From Escherichia phage T4: a stretch of DNA of 64,000 nt. The DNA lies in the sequence record NC_000866.4; one strand, 5' to 3'. Of this stretch, positions 14,897 through 23,354 are shown in pieces (the stretch's first letter is position 1; every line of letters starts with the position of its first letter). A model generated the notes under the pieces. It ran no database searches. It saw nothing but the letters and a program-made list of their open reading frames with translations, and was not told the DNA's origin. Both the position numbers and the translations under genes were made by a program.

Positions 14897-15382
14897 TCAA
14901 GTATTGTAAAACATTTGATGCAATCGCTTATATTGCTGAATCATTCGGTCAGAAAAAGAAATTTGAGTTTCAAGCCATTCAATGTACTCTGCGGCAGCTT
15001 GCATTAAATTTCCTTCATAGCCATCGTTATTTTCTTGTGCAGCTAATTTAGCTAATGCGTATGAAATACGTTCACCTTGAAAATCGGCTTTAGGCTTCTG
15101 AACAACTTGATTAGTTCGCTCTACAACTTCTTCAATTTCGCCATTTTCTACTGATTCAGTATTCCACAAACACCAATACGTAATTGGCTTATCGTAGATG
15201 TTAATAATCTTTCCATCAGAAAGTTCAATTTCAATAATTCCAGTGTCAGGCTCTATATCATCTTCACATTCTTTTACAAGTTCACGAACTTTAAAGACAG
15301 TACCTGCACTAAGTTCCGGCCAGTAATTACACAGCCCTGTATCAGCACGATTAATTCTAAACCATTTATCTACTGTAATCAT
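14897..15382 (-). CDS. pin: PinA-like inhibitor of host Lon protease
   Basis: Start trimmed to MITVDKWF (161 aa); position after gene 49. Confidence 0.7.
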   Translation of the reverse strand: MITVDKWFRINRADTGLCNYWPELSAGTVFKVRELVKECEDDIEPDTGIIEIELSDGKIINIYDKPITYWCLWNTESVENGEIEEVVERTNQVVQKPKADFQGERISYALAKLAAQENNDGYEGNLMQAAAEYIEWLETQISFSDRMIQQYKRLHQMFYNT

Positions 15383-15505
15383 GTCCCATCTCCATATCAA
15401 TTAAGTCATTTATCGTTGGTTCATTATACACCGTTTCTTCATCAGTGTAAACCGGTTCTTCCGGCTCTGGCTCTACAGTTTCCCATCTAGCCGCCCACCA
15501 AGGTT

Positions 15506-15826
15506 TTATAGCGTAATCCATTCTCGTACTGTCTGAGTTACTACACGTTCTCGAAGCTCAACCAGTTCAACAGTAGGAACTGCATAATACCAGTCAGAAT
15601 GGTAAGAACCTGAGCGAGATTCATTTACAGCCACATGTACATTATGTTTTGGACTAAAATAAACACACTGACGATATTGGCATTTACCATCTTGCACCCA
15701 GTCTTCTATTTCGATAGGTTTAAGATAGTCGGAAAAATCGAAATCATAGTTTTCCGAAAATGCATCATGGTCTTCAATGATTTCGCTCAGAACTGCATCA
15801 ACATCTAATTTATTTTCAATATTCAT
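15506..15826 (-). CDS. hypothetical protein (49.1-like)
   Basis: 106 aa acidic ORF. Confidence 0.5.
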   Translation of the reverse strand: MNIENKLDVDAVLSEIIEDHDAFSENYDFDFSDYLKPIEIEDWVQDGKCQYRQCVYFSPKHNVHVAVNESRSGSYHSDWYYAVPTVELVELRERVVTQTVREWITL

Positions 15827-16131
15827 TTTTCACACCACCAACTGCTTACTTCAAAATCGGGTTCGCCATGTTCCCAGAACCAGGGGCCGATAGGAATCCA
15901 CTTACCTTCATCGGTGACGTCATATTCTTCGGATTTAAGCCCAACGTATCGCCATTCGACTTCATAAGCGGTACCACCGATTACAACTGTGTTCTCGCCA
16001 TACGGGTTAGACACAACAAAGTCTATACCTTCTGCTTTAGCTAACCAAATCATGTATTCATAGAGTTTATATTCCAGGTCGCCTTCTGTTCCATCGCCTA
16101 GAAAAATAATTTGTTCATTTAATTCTATCAT
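15823..16131 (-). CDS. hypothetical protein (49.2-like)
   Basis: 102 aa ORF, stop overlapping nrdC start. Confidence 0.5.
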   Translation of the reverse strand: MIELNEQIIFLGDGTEGDLEYKLYEYMIWLAKAEGIDFVVSNPYGENTVVIGGTAYEVEWRYVGLKSEEYDVTDEGKWIPIGPWFWEHGEPDFEVSSWWCEK

Positions 16132-16391
16132 TTAAAGTATTCCCGCAATTGGTCAAATCCACCAATATGACTTCCATCAGGAGCAAATACCTGAGGCATT
16201 GTTAAGCCGATTTGAGTATCACGACCTAGTTTAGTCAGAAGCTCAGCAATTTTCTCATCATCAAAAACACCTTTTTCCGGCATAATGTTGATAAATTCAA
16301 ACGGCTGTTTCTTCACAGTCAAAAGACGTTTTGCATTATCGCAATACACACATTTATGAATGTTGCTATCATAACCATATACTTTAAACAT
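16128..16391 (-). CDS. nrdC: thioredoxin/glutaredoxin NrdC
   Basis: 87 aa MFKVYGYDSNIHKCVYCDNAKRLL...; CVYC redox motif. Confidence 0.9.
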   Translation of the reverse strand: MFKVYGYDSNIHKCVYCDNAKRLLTVKKQPFEFINIMPEKGVFDDEKIAELLTKLGRDTQIGLTMPQVFAPDGSHIGGFDQLREYFK

Positions 16392-16392
16392 A

Positions 16393-16635
16393 TTATTCCT
16401 TAATTCCTAGTACTTGTTTAAAAGTCTCGTCGTAATCAAGACTTTGGCCCGTTTGTTCTTTATGCTTGTATATAATATCACTTACTTCTGATAGCATATT
16501 TTTATATGAACGAGTTAAAGCAGATTTAAGCACGCTGTATCTATCAGGAAATTTACCGTGTTCATTATAATAAGCTATTGCTAATTCACGGACTGCCTTT
16601 TCAGCAGTCTCCATATATTCTTTACGCTTTGTCAT
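16393..16635 (-). CDS. hypothetical protein (nrdC.1-like)
   Basis: ORF track 16393..16776; start trimmed to [13 protein letters not shown]. Confidence 0.5.
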
Positions 16636-16936
16636 TTTCTTCTCGGTCAAATCGGTGTTTACAATGGCGACATTTATAACGAAGATTATTAGTCTGCCAA
16701 TGGACCAATTGCACCTGTTCAGTTCCACATTCAGGGCAATTAGGAACGTTTTTAGAAGCCCTTTCGCGACGTTCAACCATGACCATTACAGAATCCCAAT
16801 TAACAGGAGGGCTATAATCATCACAACCATAAATCTTTCCACGCATTTCCAGATCGTCTTCTTCACCAGCCATAATAATTTTAATTAGACTAGAATTACT
16901 TGAAGCTGCAATGTCTTCTAATAGACGCTTTTTCAT
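16622..16936 (-). CDS. zinc-ribbon protein (nrdC.2-like)
   Basis: 104 aa; CPECG...CRHCKH four-Cys motif. Confidence 0.55.
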
Positions 16937-17859
16937 TTCAATACCTCAATAGCATTACGTAAACCATTTGCTTTGGCGGTTAAATCCTTAAGAACTTTAG
17001 TATGCTCTTCAATCTGTTTTTCAACTTCAATCAAACGGGTACTGAGATATTCGCGTTCTTCTTTCATAGTATCATTCCCATGATTGGGCTTTGGCGTAGG
17101 TTTAAATTTATTAGGGTCCTTTAACTTAATAACAACTTTAGTTTCAAACAGTGAAAGACCATAATTCGTATTATCATCAAAGGATTCAACTACGTCCATT
17201 TTAGACAATAACGTACGAAGTTTATAAGTCAAAGAACGAATCGTTTTATTATGTTTATTAGCTTCACATGGTTTCATATATGGAAGATTTTTATATATTT
17301 CATGCGGAGCACAAACAATAATTAACAATTCAAATGGTCCATTCTGAGATGATGGAATGAATTTAGCCGTAACCCAATCTTTTACATTTACATTAATAGT
17401 ACGATCATCGCCATGACAAAACAGTCTACGAGAATGCTTAAAAAGCATATTCACATTATTATTAAATTCGTGTGAAAACTCACTGGCAAATTTTTCTTTA
17501 CTATCTTTAGAAAACCATTCTTCTAAATAAGTTCTTTTCACGTCGTTAATAATATTAAATGTAACAACATTATCATTTGATACATTAGTCTCAATGTAGC
17601 TTGGATACATAAATTTTTTAACATTATTAACAGCTATCACAGAAGATAGTAATCGGGAACGTTTGAACCACTCGAGCAAAGAACCAAGAGAATGTGAATA
17701 CGCATTTTGTGTATCTTTACAAATATGGTTTTCCCATCCAATATAGTCTAAAAAATCACGAAGAATATTATTGATTACTTCTCTATGTCCTTTCTGATAA
17801 TCACGATGTTTAGTAATAAGACTGTCAAAATAATCAATATAATGTTTACGAGTTTTCAT
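16933..17859 (-). CDS. hypothetical protein with C-terminal coiled coil (nrdC.3-like)
   Basis: 308 aa; first of three consecutive proteins of similar architecture. Confidence 0.6.
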   Translation of the reverse strand: MKTRKHYIDYFDSLITKHRDYQKGHREVINNILRDFLDYIGWENHICKDTQNAYSHSLGSLLEWFKRSRLLSSVIAVNNVKKFMYPSYIETNVSNDNVVTFNIINDVKRTYLEEWFSKDSKEKFASEFSHEFNNNVNMLFKHSRRLFCHGDDRTINVNVKDWVTAKFIPSSQNGPFELLIIVCAPHEIYKNLPYMKPCEANKHNKTIRSLTYKLRTLLSKMDVVESFDDNTNYGLSLFETKVVIKLKDPNKFKPTPKPNHGNDTMKEEREYLSTRLIEVEKQIEEHTKVLKDLTAKANGLRNAIEVLK

Positions 17860-17913
17860 GTTCTTCTCACTTGGTTAATGATTTATACTCCGAGCCATCC
17901 TTGGCTTTAAATT

Positions 17914-18915
17914 TTACTTAATTAACTGCAAAGCTTGTTCTAGACGATCAAGACGATTAACGGATTCTTCCCAAATCTTTTTAGCCTGCTCATATTCTTT
18001 CTGCGCTTTATTAGAAATTTCTAGAACTTCTTTATAAGCTTTTTCTAGTGCAATAACTTCTGGACGAATTTCTATCGGTTCAGGTGAATCATCAAGACAT
18101 TCCATTAGTTCCTCAAGGGTAGTTTCTTCTTTAGGAGTATTCACAATTTCATCACATTTTTGTTGGTAAATTTCTTTACTAGTAGGTGAATAAGCACATT
18201 TCACTTCACGAAGGCTAATTACGAGTTTATATCCTTCCCAACCGCATATATTCTTAAAAGGATATGTATGAATATTTTCTACTGTTTCCATACAAAGTAA
18301 TGCGGTCTCTAATTGACGAGTTATAGTGCTAGCAATTGAGAAAAATTTATTAATATTCTTTTGGTTAGTTTCTGGTGTAAAAAATCCATAATTCACAAAA
18401 ATAGATACTTTATTTTTATCAAGTTCATATTCTTTTATGATAATCATATCAGAAGCCAAAGGATGAATTTGACGATAATCGCCATAACATAATTTAGAAG
18501 CTGATTTTAGAATTTGCTTCTTGAAAAGTCTGAAATTACTAATCCAACGACGAGTAAAAATATTCTCAGGGTCTTCTTTATTATTGAGATGATAAGAATT
18601 AACATCACCGAACCAATTATATCCTACTACATCTTTAGTTCGTTTAATTTCTTTCCCAAAATTACCAAGAATATCCCGATTAACCAAATATGAAAGAAGA
18701 CGAGACTCTTTAAAGGTTTTCTTGATAACATCTTTATCTACACGGCTAGAAATTTTACGAATTTCATGAATAAATTTAGTAGAAGAAACAATACTTGCAT
18801 CAACACTATTGAGCCACTGATTGATAATAGAAAGAACGCTATTTTGGCCAAACATCGGTATAGCTTTATCATCAATAACGCTATTGAATGATTTGATATA
18901 TTCGTTACGAGTCAT
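17914..18915 (-). CDS. hypothetical protein with C-terminal coiled coil (nrdC.4-like)
   Basis: Start trimmed to MTRNEYIKSF downstream of early promoter 18944-18973. Confidence 0.6.
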   Translation of the reverse strand: MTRNEYIKSFNSVIDDKAIPMFGQNSVLSIINQWLNSVDASIVSSTKFIHEIRKISSRVDKDVIKKTFKESRLLSYLVNRDILGNFGKEIKRTKDVVGYNWFGDVNSYHLNNKEDPENIFTRRWISNFRLFKKQILKSASKLCYGDYRQIHPLASDMIIIKEYELDKNKVSIFVNYGFFTPETNQKNINKFFSIASTITRQLETALLCMETVENIHTYPFKNICGWEGYKLVISLREVKCAYSPTSKEIYQQKCDEIVNTPKEETTLEELMECLDDSPEPIEIRPEVIALEKAYKEVLEISNKAQKEYEQAKKIWEESVNRLDRLEQALQLIK

Positions 18916-18943
18916 ATTAATCTCCTCAGTAGAAAGTAAGAAC

Positions 18944-18973
18944 ATTATACCACATCCTTGTGGCAAAGTAAAC
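18944..18973 (-). promoter_or_regulatory. T4-type early promoter
   Basis: Minus strand GTTTAC-18-TATAAT upstream of nrdC.4-like ORF. Confidence 0.65.
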
Positions 18974-19995
18974 TAGTTCAGTGCATTTAGTGCATTGTTC
19001 AGTTTAGAACGTTGCTTTGTCAGATTTTGAACCCTTGACTGAGCTTGTTCTAACGCCTTTTCAGCTTCTAGCACTTCATTGGTCGCTTTAACTAATTCAG
19101 CATCTACTGCCTTAAGAGACTTCTCAATCGCATCCGCGTGCCATTTTTCAACAGGTTTAAGACTTGGATTTTCAACAGGAAGAAAATTCACTTTATTGAA
19201 TTTCCATGCATCTTTATTACCTGAGCTATACATCCAAAATTTAGGATCGTTTGATAAGTAATTAGATAAATTTAAGTTATCTTGCACTTCTTGCTTTTTC
19301 TCTTGTGTGACTTCGTCCTTTCTCAAAAATTCATATTTAAATGAAACGATCATATCAAGTTCATATGATGTTGTATCTAACTTAAATCGTTCAAAACGAG
19401 GTAAAATCTTAGATTGAACAGCAGCAACAACATCCATATACTTAAATGCTTCTGTCAACTGCGATTTAAGGCATTCGCAAATTGAAAGAGAATTTTTTGT
19501 ATTAGGTTTAAAGCTAATTCGTGCAGTTCTATTATTTTCTTTTAACGGTCTTACTTCCATCTGAAGAGTATAACCATCAAATTTCAGATTCTTTAAGTTA
19601 ATGTCAGAGCCTTTTAATCGACTAGCAGTAGACAAAATTTGCTTTAATTGTCTACGGAACAGAGCAATAAATCTCCATTCAATACGATAATGATTTGGAT
19701 TGAAAAATCCAGATGATAAATCGACCTTACTTTGACCAACGCCTTGAACAAATAGAGGATTTTTATAATCAATAGTTTTACAGAAATCGGTGAGCTGTTC
19801 ACGAGCAGTCATTTGAGTAATATACCCTGCTTTACTAAAATTACGCACCCATTCACTGCTATTCGTATACTTAAAGTGATGAATAACACGATTAACTTTA
19901 TCAGGGTCTAAATTATTTTCACACAAAAATGTCATAACATCACGAGTATAGCTGGCATTACGAACCATATCTTCAATTTGAGAACGAGTTTTCAT
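18973..19995 (-). CDS. hypothetical protein with C-terminal coiled coil (nrdC.5-like)
   Basis: 340 aa ORF. Confidence 0.6.
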   Translation of the reverse strand: MKTRSQIEDMVRNASYTRDVMTFLCENNLDPDKVNRVIHHFKYTNSSEWVRNFSKAGYITQMTAREQLTDFCKTIDYKNPLFVQGVGQSKVDLSSGFFNPNHYRIEWRFIALFRRQLKQILSTASRLKGSDINLKNLKFDGYTLQMEVRPLKENNRTARISFKPNTKNSLSICECLKSQLTEAFKYMDVVAAVQSKILPRFERFKLDTTSYELDMIVSFKYEFLRKDEVTQEKKQEVQDNLNLSNYLSNDPKFWMYSSGNKDAWKFNKVNFLPVENPSLKPVEKWHADAIEKSLKAVDAELVKATNEVLEAEKALEQAQSRVQNLTKQRSKLNNALNALN

Positions 19996-20065
19996 GGTGT
20001 TCCTTAAGATTTAAGTAAATCAACAATTTTAATTAACTTTTCACGCTCAGATTTAGCTTTACTAC

Positions 20066-20917
20066 TCAATCCAGATAGTCTGAAAATTTCATCATCATAT
20101 TGTTGAATAGAAATATCAGCTCTTCAATTTGCTTATTAAAATAATCAATTTGTTCAGAATGTTTTTCGTTACTACGAACTGGTACAGGTTTTGTAGGCAA
20201 TTTAGTTGAACTGGATTCATTCGGGCGATAAATTAAAATGCAATTTGAACCAATCGGGCATTTAGCACCAGATGAATATTCTAACGTTCCAGCTTCTTTT
20301 AAAACTTCAAAAGCTAAACAGAGATGATGCCCCATATTAACATAATCAGTAGAGCGAGCTCTGATGTAATAATCATCTCCACGAGTGCTAAATTTAAAGC
20401 ATTTAAGGTCTTCTGTATTATTAGTTTTAAAAATCATTTGTTTATCTAGACCTTTAGCCAATCGAGCACCTAATGCTAATAATCGTCGTTGATTTTCCCA
20501 CAAATCTGCGATCATTTGGTCAAATGATAATTTCGGCATTAGCCGACCATAAAGGTCATATCCTTTATTATAATTGCGAAGGATTTCACTCGCATTAATA
20601 CGAGACAACGCTCCAATTTTATTAAGGGCTTTCATAATACGATTAGATAAACTCATTCCAGACCCGTTTGTTCGCTGTAAATGTTTTTCTAATCCAAATC
20701 CAATATCAACTTTAAATTTATCTAAAATTTCAGCATGAACATCTCTGTCAATAACATTCAAATCCAAAGTTGGGTTAAATCTATGAAAAAATTTATCTGG
20801 CTCTCCACGACGTAAAACAGTCCATTCATTCATCATTTTTTTATTAACTAAAGATTTAATTACTGCGTTGACATTATTAATTACTACTGACATATTTTCC
20901 TCACTCAATTTTACCAA
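20066..20917 (-). CDS. hypothetical protein (nrdC.6-like)
   Basis: 283 aa ORF. Confidence 0.6.
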   Translation of the reverse strand: MVKLSEENMSVVINNVNAVIKSLVNKKMMNEWTVLRRGEPDKFFHRFNPTLDLNVIDRDVHAEILDKFKVDIGFGLEKHLQRTNGSGMSLSNRIMKALNKIGALSRINASEILRNYNKGYDLYGRLMPKLSFDQMIADLWENQRRLLALGARLAKGLDKQMIFKTNNTEDLKCFKFSTRGDDYYIRARSTDYVNMGHHLCLAFEVLKEAGTLEYSSGAKCPIGSNCILIYRPNESSSTKLPTKPVPVRSNEKHSEQIDYFNKQIEELIFLFNNMMMKFSDYLD

Positions 20918-21302
20918 TTACGCGGAATAAGATTGAACAGACTATATAAGTACCACATATAGATTGAACTAATGCCATTCCAAAGAACCAAACAATATTA
21001 TCAAACCATGTCTGTTTTACGTCGAAAGGACGTAAACTTACAGTAATATTATCACCTTTTTCTATTGAAGAATACGTCTCTGGGGAAATATATTCACTAA
21101 ATCTATAACCGTCTTTGAGTTCATATACAGCAATAAACGATAAACTAGACCCCTTTCCTTGAGTTCCTGTAAGGGTATTAACTACAGTAACATCATAATC
21201 TTTATAATGCATATAATCATTAATTGCGTAATAACCATATGCAATTACTATACATAAACAACATATCAATAAATTCAATCTTTTAATTATCAACTGTTTC
21301 AT
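20901..21302 (-). CDS. hypothetical membrane protein (nrdC.7-like)
   Basis: 133 aa with N- and C-terminal hydrophobic helices. Confidence 0.55.
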   Translation of the reverse strand: MKQLIIKRLNLLICCLCIVIAYGYYAINDYMHYKDYDVTVVNTLTGTQGKGSSLSFIAVYELKDGYRFSEYISPETYSSIEKGDNITVSLRPFDVKQTWFDNIVWFFGMALVQSICGTYIVCSILFRVIGKIE

Positions 21303-21357
21303 AATAATCTCAATTAAAAGGGCTTAGAACCATTATACCATCCTTGGTATAAAGCGG

Positions 21358-21885
21358 TTATGCGAGTACCGTATTTAACCGTTCTTCAAACTTCCGAAGA
21401 GTGTTCTGGCGTTCAGCTCTTTGCTTTTTGTAAGTTTCAATACGCTCTGAAATGAGAGTGTATCGTTCATTTACTGATTCTTTCATAAAATCAGGAATTT
21501 CTCGAGAAGCTTTAATCTCGTCAAATTTATCAATAACAGCTTGCTCTTCAGCAATTAAGTTATCATACATCAAAATATCTTTCTTGATGAACTCAATATC
21601 TTCTTGAGTTACACGAGATAATTTAGATGCTTTATCCTTTTTGTACTGTTCGTTAGTATCACGAGACCAGTGTAATGTACGATTTTTATTCGTATTCTTG
21701 TAAATTTCTACAATACCAATCTCATCGATAATAACGATCCAATTCCAACGGGATTTGTAAATTTGTCCTCCATTAACAGTGATTTCACCTCCGATTGAGA
21801 TGTCATTAAAGAACTTGCTTTGTGCTTCTGATTTAAATTTACCATCGTTGTAATTTACCAGGTTGAAAATATCTTTAGCGTTCAT
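21358..21885 (-). CDS. hypothetical protein (nrdC.8-like)
   Basis: Start trimmed to MNAKDIF preceded by GGAGG; ORF track extension covers promoter and 5-prime UTR. Confidence 0.55.
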   Translation of the reverse strand: MNAKDIFNLVNYNDGKFKSEAQSKFFNDISIGGEITVNGGQIYKSRWNWIVIIDEIGIVEIYKNTNKNRTLHWSRDTNEQYKKDKASKLSRVTQEDIEFIKKDILMYDNLIAEEQAVIDKFDEIKASREIPDFMKESVNERYTLISERIETYKKQRAERQNTLRKFEERLNTVLA

Positions 21886-21913
21886 TTTGTGTTCCTCCGT
21901 AGTTGATAGTTGT

Positions 21914-21943
21914 ATAGTACCACAGAGGAACGGTCTTGTAAAC
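21914..21943 (-). promoter_or_regulatory. T4-type early promoter with conserved downstream block
   Basis: Minus strand GTTTAC-18-TACTAT followed by acaactatcaactac and GGAGG. Confidence 0.65.
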
Positions 21944-21945
21944 AA

Positions 21946-22260
21946 CTAAAAGAAACTTCTTTCACAATTTTTTCCACTGAACCAAGCGCTCACTGCTTTC
22001 TTAGTTTCAGGAGCAGTGTTATCCATAAACCATTCAAAGGCAGCCTTTTTATGATTCTGGAGGGCTTCTCGGGCTTTAATCTGCTCACGGTCTATTAACA
22101 CTAACATATGAGCCTTTCTTGTCACCAGGGGCTTCTTATGATTTTTTGAATACTCCCAATCATTTGTCCATCGCATCGTTGTTGCGAATTGAAATACAGC
22201 TTCTTTAATCTTAGTTTCGTAAATTTCACGAGCCTTTGAGTATAACATCATTACCTCCAT
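21946..22260 (-). CDS. hypothetical protein (nrdC.9-like)
   Basis: 104 aa ORF. Confidence 0.5.
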   Translation of the reverse strand: MEVMMLYSKAREIYETKIKEAVFQFATTMRWTNDWEYSKNHKKPLVTRKAHMLVLIDREQIKAREALQNHKKAAFEWFMDNTAPETKKAVSAWFSGKNCERSFF

Positions 22261-22342
22261 TTACCAGTTTAATTCTAGTCATCTTTTTGATGGCAGTCCA
22301 TATAATCTATTTCTGAACTGCCTTTTTGTCTTAGAAGGCCTC

Positions 22343-23320
22343 TTATGAATTTATTTCAGAAGAGTAACCCGTAGCGATTTCTTCCCAACCGTTTTTGTCG
22401 GTCATAATAAAGTCAGCAAGATAAAGTGCAGTACGCAGTGAAACATTACGTAAACGGTTAACATTGACTTTCATCCATGATAATGCTTTATAAGTTTCTT
22501 CATCAGAAAGACCACGCTTTTGCATCATGTCGGTTGAAAGAATAACATCTTCAACCCTGACCATAATTTCTTCATTAGTGTGAACACCCAAATCCAAATA
22601 AACTGAGCGGGACACTAATGCTTGTAAATGTGGAGCAAGTTTAGTACCACGGTCTAATTCGCGGTCAATGTCAACGTTTGTGATAAAAACAATTGTTCCT
22701 TTAAATTCGAGCTCACGCTCAATGCCTTTTTCTTCTAAGTAAGAAGATGCAGTGCTCCAGCAGACTTTACGGGTCTCTCCAGTGTCCAGAGCAGCTTTCA
22801 GAAGATTAAGAATGTCCATATCAGAGAAAACATCCACATCATCAATCAAAAGGACAGAATTCTCTTCACGATTATTCCAAAGCTGTTCATAAAGACCGAT
22901 ACCAGAGATTTTACCGTTAATGCTTTTATACTCAATGTATCCAATATCATTTGCTTTATTCAAAGCTTTATCTAAAGAATATGTTTTACCAATACCCGCC
23001 GCACCAGAGATAATTAATGAACGAATATTTCCGTTAATAATACCATTCGTCATCATTCCCATAACATTAAATCTTTTATTAATGCGGGTTTTCATATCTT
23101 CATATGATTCTTTAACTTCTTCAACTTTTACACCATCATATGAAATGTCTGATTTGTAAACCCAAACACCGCGACGTTTACCGTCAATTTCAACAAAAAC
23201 TTTACCATCTCCTTGTGCATCTACCGGAGCATTATCAGGGAACCATTCACCTAAGAGCTCAAAAGTTCCAGAGATTTCTTTACCGAAGTACATACCCTTA
23301 TTGATAGTTACAGTTTTCAT
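22343..23320 (-). CDS. P-loop ATPase, AAA-like (nrdC.10-like)
   Basis: Walker A GAAGIGKT and Walker B VLLIDDVD; start trimmed to MKTVTINKG. Confidence 0.7.
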   Translation of the reverse strand: MKTVTINKGMYFGKEISGTFELLGEWFPDNAPVDAQGDGKVFVEIDGKRRGVWVYKSDISYDGVKVEEVKESYEDMKTRINKRFNVMGMMTNGIINGNIRSLIISGAAGIGKTYSLDKALNKANDIGYIEYKSINGKISGIGLYEQLWNNREENSVLLIDDVDVFSDMDILNLLKAALDTGETRKVCWSTASSYLEEKGIERELEFKGTIVFITNVDIDRELDRGTKLAPHLQALVSRSVYLDLGVHTNEEIMVRVEDVILSTDMMQKRGLSDEETYKALSWMKVNVNRLRNVSLRTALYLADFIMTDKNGWEEIATGYSSEINS

Positions 23321-23354
23321 TTTATTCTCCAAATCCGTATCAGTTGATAGTTGT

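Follow-up and report, generated by a model that had tools for sequence, protein, structure and literature searches.

Are the neighboring genes nrdC.3, nrdC.4, and nrdC.5 of Escherichia phage T4 members of one family, and what might such a family do? The genes lie in a 64,000-nucleotide (nt) stretch of T4 sequence record NC_000866.4, referred to here as the window. The 4.9 kb around them matches Escherichia phage T4 at 99.9% identity, their names follow T4 GenBank record U76612.1, and the neighbors of the array encode endonuclease VII, Pin, NrdC, and NrdD. An initial annotation, made from the sequence, described three consecutive minus-strand open reading frames (ORFs) of 308, 333, and 340 amino acids (aa), each ending in a heptad-rich helix of about 40 residues, and read them as a tandem paralog family, possibly of diversified binders for variable host targets. 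The ORFs lie exactly where that annotation placed them, and the C-terminal sequences that it quoted are correct. The comparisons described below point to an array of four genes with a candidate role in antagonizing host immune sensors.

Homology of NrdC.3, NrdC.4, and NrdC.5

Paralogy could not be settled by pairwise BLASTP, the signal being too weak. The best pair, NrdC.3 and NrdC.4, is 24% identical over 271 residues with an E value of 0.001, and pairs with NrdC.5 were not significant (E values of 0.15 to 0.26). Family models divide the three proteins into two groups. NrdC.3 and NrdC.4 are matched end to end by phrog_1435 (E values of 5.5e−101 and 5.6e−168, respectively), and all of their homologs carry the precomputed annotation PF26897, through which this assignment was made, the local Pfam copy being without the PF26897 model. 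NrdC.5 is matched by PF23882 (DUF7235) over residues 1 to 340 (E value of 5.3e−126; 420.6 bits against a cutoff of 30) and by phrog_2351 (E value of 1e−168).

Comparison of profiles with hhalign linked all three proteins. NrdC.3 and NrdC.4 aligned in their globular regions over about 211 columns (98%; E value of 1e−14). A first comparison with a shallow, Tequatrovirus-only alignment of NrdC.5, the members of which are at least 78% identical, reached 37% against NrdC.4 and 1% in the other comparison. The NrdC.5 alignment was then widened with 23 to 40% identical homologs from Gaprivervirus, Dhakavirus, Mosigvirus, and metagenomes. With this alignment, NrdC.4 and NrdC.5 were collinear over 245 to 257 columns (93 to 96%; E values of 3e−7 to 6e−9; 96% with an E value of 8e−9 over 257 columns), and NrdC.3 matched NrdC.5 at 86% (E value of 5e−6). 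The match between NrdC.4 and NrdC.5 persisted after removal of the C-terminal helix (92%; E value of 7e−7), and the neighboring proteins NrdC.8 and NrdC.10, compared with every family as controls, did not exceed 0.4%.

Other searches did not cross the family boundaries. Searches with hidden Markov models (HMMs) against a small local ORF set gave nothing significant across families, an exhaustive search of 1.84 billion proteins with the NrdC.5 profile returned 15 representatives and no cross-family match, and searches of PDB sequences and of NCBIfam returned coiled-coil noise only. Judging from these sequence searches, the NrdC.5 family is narrow and profile-to-sequence searching cannot bridge the families. 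The isolated C-terminal tails, which are too short for such a comparison, gave no significant similarity by hhalign.

These results bear on the possibility that NrdC.5 shares no ancestry with NrdC.3 and NrdC.4 and came by its size, coiled-coil tail, and low-complexity linker through convergence. The BLASTP values, the 37% of the first hhalign comparison, the HMM-to-sequence searches, and the separation of the families in Pfam and PHROGs are what convergence would predict. The widened alignment, with its match outside the helix and its low controls, is not, nor are the conserved adjacency of the genes and the agreement of the structural models presented below, and we regard convergence as extremely improbable.

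Predicted structure and shared architecture

In the AlphaFold2 (AF2) models of the NrdC.4 monomer (pLDDT of 80, pTM of 0.64) and the NrdC.5 monomer (pLDDT of 75, pTM of 0.59), the secondary-structure elements follow one and the same order. From the N terminus, a group of five or six helices leads into three strands and two helices, then into two further strands, a single long helix, and a pair of long strands. After these come a disordered linker, predicted with low confidence in both models, and the terminal helix. Foldseek searches of BFVD with both models retrieved common targets, which are uncharacterized 300- to 370-aa proteins of T4-like phages, including those of Erwinia phage Cronus (A0A2S1GM98), Pectobacterium phage PM2 (A0A0A0PZG4), and Serratia phage PS2 (A0A023W506). 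The NrdC.4 model also matched NrdC.3 of Yersinia phage fPS-65 (E value of 2e−8) and NrdC.6 of phage JS10 (E value of 8e−6, probability of 1.0, TM scores of 0.40 and 0.46).

Since both profile and structure matches were found, the resemblance extends beyond coiled-coil composition. The hhalign matches over the globular regions, the common element order, and the common Foldseek targets bear out the tandem paralog family that the initial annotation had suggested. We conclude with high confidence that NrdC.3, NrdC.4, and NrdC.5 are true tandem paralogs. In the architecture predicted for them and for NrdC.6, a helical bundle at the N terminus precedes an alpha/beta sandwich core, and a flexible linker, the length of which varies, joins the core to an amphipathic C-terminal helix of 42 to 59 residues.

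The sandwich core also matched tail-terminator and tail-completion proteins (lambda gpU, DUF3168, and SPP1 gp17-like proteins), a match to a common fold that is not specific. It raises the idea that the core originated in a phage neck protein of this type and serves as a decoy, so that the NrdC proteins would be early mimics occupying sensors of conserved virion proteins. Unlike tail-terminator proteins, the NrdC proteins are early and nonstructural and have an additional N-terminal bundle, linker, and coiled coil. We consider such a decoy origin highly improbable.

A single-nucleotide difference truncates nrdC.6 in the classic T4 sequence

The gene nrdC.6 adjoins nrdC.5 directly upstream. In VR7, AnYang, and related phages, its product has ~281 aa and the C terminus ...KAERQKLMNVIELLKD, a tail of the same kind as those of the three paralogs, and all other Tequatrovirus loci carry a 295-aa form with the helix. 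The gene in the window ends differently, and its +1 frame encodes ...ISIQQYDDEIFRLSGLSSKAKSEREKLIKIVDLLKS followed by a stop codon. T4 assembly OZ209023.1 has one extra A at this site (GCTGAATATT versus GCTG-ATATT, window position ~20116/20117) and an intact nrdC.6 of 296 aa that ends in ...SEREKLIKIVDLLKS. The A is missing from GenBank record U76612.1, as it is from the window. Thus, because 1 nt is missing from the classic T4 sequence, nrdC.6 is cut to 275 aa and loses its conserved C-terminal helix. The frameshift is due either to a long-standing sequencing error or to a mutation in a laboratory strain.

Since the corrected nrdC.6 regains the helix, four consecutive genes appear to share the architecture. 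The three genes noted initially are real, and the array is larger than had been described.

Properties of the C-terminal helix

Heptad periodicity is strong in the three tails of the initial annotation, which slightly underestimated their length at about 40 residues. Hydrophobic residues occupy 83 to 88% of a and d positions versus 20 to 26% of the others, a contrast reached by at most 0.2% of 2,000 shuffled sequences. The individual values are 0.83 versus 0.20 for NrdC.3 (0.2% of shuffles), 0.86 versus 0.26 for NrdC.4 (0.05%), and 0.88 versus 0.24 for NrdC.5 (0 of 2,000). The periodicity is present in all four tails, including that of NrdC.6, in one register relative to the C terminus. The four families also share a terminal motif, L-x-x-[A/I/V]-[I/L/V]-x-x-[L/I]-[K/N], followed by 0 or 1 residue. 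It occurs in 3 of the 135 window ORFs of at least 60 aa, which are nrdC.3, nrdC.4, and nrdC.5, and in 52 of 791 ORFs from related loci, all of them family members. For NrdC.3, the helix is the most conserved block of the family alignment, with an identity of 0.97 in the last block.

Two short ORFs were considered as signs of a mobile helix module and rejected. One (P0161, 173 aa) joins a foreign N terminus to the last ~55 residues of NrdC.5, comprising a linker motif and the helix. It lies on an 803-bp ENA contig (L023) of unclear origin that continues into the start of an nrdC.4-like gene, its N-terminal region has no match in the 64-kb window, and it may represent a recombinant or an artifact of assembly. 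The other (P0167, 83 aa, linker and helix) resembles a fragment of a disrupted gene.

NrdC.5 is the published antagonist of Dsr1

Srikant et al. (2022; eLife 11:e79549, PMC9391042) describe a T4 clone with compensatory deletions that is blocked on ECOR17 by the sirtuin defense protein Dsr1, and they report that plasmid-borne NrdC.5 restores plating of the deletion clone on ECOR17 Dsr1 cells. Their cloning primers encode MKTRSQI... and ...ALNALN followed by the stop codon; SS-45 has a unique match at positions 19974 to 19995 and SS-46 at positions 18973 to 18993. Because the primers map exactly to the ends of the 340-aa ORF, this ORF is the published anti-Dsr1 gene nrdC.5. According to a 2026 preprint (PMC12803255), Dsr1 has a TPR sensor domain, shared with Avs7, that is triggered by a phage major capsid protein, a late protein.

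The region is dispensable in the laboratory. The Deltatk2 deletion spans tk to nrdC.2, and a fragment containing nrdC.1 to nrdC.6 can be removed. Other counter-defense genes of the surrounding region encode gp49.2 (anti-OLD) and the Lon inhibitor Pin. In the literature searched, neither a function or mechanism for NrdC.3, NrdC.4, or NrdC.6 nor a family relationship has been reported. Because their paralog NrdC.5 neutralizes Dsr1, the three proteins are good candidates for anti-immunity factors.

Conservation of the array and divergence of NrdC.3 alleles

The order nrdC.6-nrdC.5-nrdC.4(-nrdC.3) was found in all 21 of the Tequatrovirus, Gaprivervirus, and Dhakavirus loci examined, nrdC.3 being absent from those of Gaprivervirus and Dhakavirus. 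Mosigvirus and one metagenomic relative have the arrangement nrdC.6-nrdC.5-promoter-nrdC.3 type. Because these other genera carry one type each, NrdC.3 and NrdC.4 appear to be two old PF26897 lineages that are both retained only in Tequatrovirus. At the same locus, Acinetobacter phage Acj61 encodes two adjacent structural matches between nrdC and nrdC.10, p120 (330 aa) and p121 (304 aa), both with long C-terminal helices. Acj61p118 (268 aa), which lies beside nrdC, was considered and rejected, as it is not detectable as a family member.

NrdC.4, NrdC.5, and NrdC.6 are at least 87% conserved within Tequatrovirus. Among 652 phage records, 514 encode an NrdC.3 that is less than 80% identical to the T4 version (342 at 60 to 80% and 172 below 60%). 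The variants fall into discrete classes at ≥88%, about 61%, and about 56% identity, the last being that of Mosigvirus, and the polymorphism is seen among Tequatrovirus genomes that are otherwise 90 to 95% identical. Between the T4-type allele and the majority Tequatrovirus allele, identity is 81 to 92% in the N-terminal bundle and 74 to 90% in the helix, versus 46 to 54% in the core and 18% in the linker. This pattern of divergence suggests cassette-like replacement, and such a mosaic would be expected of a recognition module that varies while the scaffold bearing it is conserved. The evidence is compatible with the early suggestion of diversified binders for variable host targets; an activity against a host target has been shown for one member, NrdC.5, and the NrdC.3 alleles differ mainly in the core.

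Several rearranged forms of these genes were encountered. A 299-aa metagenomic/ENA protein (P0056), corresponding to window positions ~17450 to 19560, is a natural NrdC.5::NrdC.3 fusion in which a deletion has removed the tail of NrdC.5, the whole of nrdC.4, and the N terminus of NrdC.3. Its junction lies at a microhomology (...KFNKVN / MLFKH... versus ...EFNNNVNMLFKH...), which indicates that illegitimate recombination occurs inside the array; as a deletion fusion at microhomology, it was rejected as evidence of homology. In a phage G8-like locus (L012:7971-9003), nrdC.4 is split into two ORFs of 193 and 158 aa (BFVD A0A482N302), and a 155-aa fragment of nrdC.4 is annotated in T2 (BFVD A0A2Z5WKJ2). 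A 155-kb Dhakavirus-like phage encodes an NrdC.4 homolog (L020:7941-8912) with an aberrant helix, ...PRLLACAQITKSKLPEVVADRLEQALELLK, its sequence suggesting an internal frameshift or deletion. Downstream, a 324-aa ORF (L020:10250-11224) gave a weak match to the NrdC.4 profile (E value of 0.039 in a small database).

A proposed role for the family and its alternatives

The reading that best accounts for the established features of the locus (paralogy, a shared fold, gene order, an early promoter, dispensability, and the anti-Dsr1 activity of NrdC.5 known from the literature) is a family of early oligomerizing proteins that inhibit host immune sensors, each recognizing its target through a variable core. 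We consider this reading probable, though with considerable reserve, as a function has been demonstrated for NrdC.5 only and is extrapolated to the others. The NrdC proteins would be made early and would oligomerize via the C-terminal coiled coil. The fast-evolving alpha/beta core, as the presumed determinant of specificity, would then bind host immune sensors directly and silence them before late trigger proteins appear. NrdC.5 would act in this manner on the sirtuin NADase Dsr1, and NrdC.3, NrdC.4, and NrdC.6 may target other Dsr1 variants or other defense proteins.

A number of points weigh against this proposal. The literature searched contains no experiment on NrdC.3, NrdC.4, or NrdC.6 and reports no physical interaction between NrdC.5 and Dsr1. 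The alignments are shallow (Neff of about 1.5 to 2.3), so that the hhalign statistics and the confidence of the AF2 models both carry less weight. Profile comparison failed to connect NrdC.6 with the other families (hhalign, ≤12%), and its predicted membership depends on one Foldseek match (TM of 0.40 to 0.46), the tail motif, and position. We infer coiled-coil oligomerization from the heptads alone, and the AF2 models are of monomers. The terminal motif was defined post hoc from known sequences, and its counts therefore express specificity and not a formal probability. Because NrdC.4, NrdC.5, and NrdC.6 are well conserved in Tequatrovirus, not all members appear to be engaged in an arms race, and the disruption of nrdC.4 in G8 and T2 means that this gene is not always needed.

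Some of these points would fit a narrower interpretation, in which the proteins are paralogs but only NrdC.5 is an immune antagonist, the others being redundant or binding host proteins for takeover of metabolism, transcription, or the envelope. The T4 early region contains many host-takeover genes, a phenotype is known only for NrdC.5, conservation of at least 87% is atypical of arms-race genes, and the split nrdC.4 of G8 and T2 is readily accommodated. The shared architecture and conserved array point instead to a shared type of activity, the neighborhood is enriched in counter-defense genes, the NrdC.3 core is hypervariable between alleles, and the array block has no phenotype on laboratory hosts, as would be expected of host-range factors. 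We therefore judge restriction of the activity to NrdC.5 to be rather unlikely, though it is to be taken seriously.

The paralogs might also coassemble through their similar helices into a hetero-oligomeric coiled coil of three or four different chains, forming one multiheaded complex. The common register and terminal motif of the four tails, the co-occurrence of the trio or quartet in every Tevenvirinae locus examined, and the status of the helix as the best-conserved segment are consistent with coassembly. On the other side, NrdC.5 alone on a plasmid sufficed for complementation, although the evo 3 clone may have retained some of the paralogs; the tails alone are not significantly similar by hhalign; and nrdC.4 is disrupted in some natural phages. 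A mixed complex of this kind seems improbable to us.

A broader version of the immune-sensor proposal would combine several of these elements. The genes nrdC.3 to nrdC.6 might form a modular anti-sensor platform throughout the Straboviridae, in which a conserved bundle and an oligomerizing, possibly hetero-oligomerizing, helix display interchangeable cores, perhaps of phage-neck-protein descent. Each core would block a different receptor (Dsr1 or Avs7-type TPR sensors), and cassettes would be swapped by recombination through conserved flanks, a process proposed because the NrdC.3 alleles suggest such exchange. As a whole, this scheme is speculative and distinctly unlikely.

Gene coordinates, promoter, and genomic context

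Coordinates of the genes and associated features are given in Table 1. In a consensus scan, the early promoter P50.0 was recovered with agreement at 10 of 12 positions and an extended −10 element, and a promoter is annotated at the equivalent position in Mosigvirus NBG1. A mechanical ORF call extends nrdC.4 past the ATG at 18915 to a TTG at 18966. The ATG is supported as the start because residues M1-T2-R3 of the 333-aa protein are invariant in 26 homologs, and the extended ORF is not the gene because the additional stretch contains P50.0.

TABLE 1 Features of the nrdC.3 to nrdC.6 array in the window
Feature	Position	Strand	Protein length or residues	Assignment and basis
nrdC.3 coding sequence	16933..17859	-	308 aa	UniProt Y04O type; Pfam PF26897 Phage_T4_Y04OP; phrog_1435; GenBank annotation
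NrdC.3 C-terminal heptad helix	16936..17061	-	Residues 267-308	Heptad test
nrdC.4 coding sequence	17914..18915	-	333 aa from ATG	PF26897; phrog_1435; GenBank annotation
NrdC.4 C-terminal helix	17917..18063	-	Residues 285-333	AF2 helix 285-332; heptad test
Early promoter P50.0, between nrdC.5 and nrdC.4	18944..18972	-		TTTACT, 17-nt spacer, TG-TATAAT; annotated in U76612.1
nrdC.5 coding sequence	18973..19995	-	340 aa	Pfam DUF7235 PF23882; phrog_2351; published anti-Dsr1 gene
NrdC.5 C-terminal helix	18976..19152	-	Residues 282-340	AF2 helix 282-339; disordered linker 224-277 before helix
nrdC.6	20004..20893	-	275-aa ORF at 20066-20893	PF26899 Phage_T4_Y05B type; phrog_2257; frameshifted in window

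A terminator-like hairpin, TGCCACAAGGATGTGGTA, with a T-rich tail lies on the minus strand at window positions 18948 to 18965, between the −35 and −10 elements of P50.0 and immediately past the stop codon of nrdC.5. Through this hairpin, termination of the upstream transcript may be coupled to reinitiation.

The stretch from pin to nrdC.11 (window positions ~14897 to 23332) resembles a counter-defense island. It encodes the Lon inhibitor Pin, gp49.2 (anti-OLD, described in a 2026 paper), the anti-Dsr1 protein NrdC.5, the AAA-ATPase-like NrdC.10, and NrdC.11, an RlaP-type nucleotidyltransferase (PF10127).

Relation to known systems and significance

The array is not a new type of system, because its genes have long been annotated and one of them has a published function. 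NrdC.3 and NrdC.4 are paralogs of the NrdC.5 of Srikant et al. with the same domain order, differing from it in having ~20 to 25% identity over the core and in belonging to different Pfam and PHROG families. The databases list PF26897/phrog_1435, PF23882/phrog_2351, and PF26899/phrog_2257 as three unrelated families with no function assigned. On the basis of the profile comparisons and models, one superfamily would join at least PF26897 and DUF7235, with PF26899 included by predicted structure. The apparent novelty lies in the joining of three functionally uncharacterized database families into one tandem-duplicated superfamily with a validated anti-defense protein among its members.

DSAD1, from an SPbeta-group phage, is a functional analog of NrdC.5 only, in that both neutralize a SIR2-domain NADase. 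DSAD1 is reported to bind the sensor region of DSR2 and to compete with or block the virion-protein trigger. No sequence or fold relationship between the NrdC proteins and DSAD1 was detected. Within T4, gp49.2 and Pin in this region, and TifA, Dmd, AdfA, IPI, and IPIII elsewhere, resemble the NrdC array in being early, dispensable, and host-range-determining and in lying in hyperplastic regions. These other T4 counter-defense proteins are mostly small and single-domain and have no paralog array, whereas the NrdC proteins have ~300 to 340 aa, are multidomain, and are tandem duplicated.

About half of the genes of the reference phage T4 have no known function. Through the superfamily, NrdC.3, NrdC.4, and NrdC.6 become candidate immune antagonists, as do their relatives in phages that infect Acinetobacter, Erwinia, Pectobacterium, Serratia, and Klebsiella, and the superfamily provides a testable hypothesis at the level of domains, that of a variable core on a conserved oligomerizing scaffold. 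The reference annotation of the nrdC.6 reading frame is corrected as well. Finally, the findings are relevant to predicting the host range of therapeutic T4-like phages, in which the NrdC.3 alleles of nearly identical genomes differ sharply.

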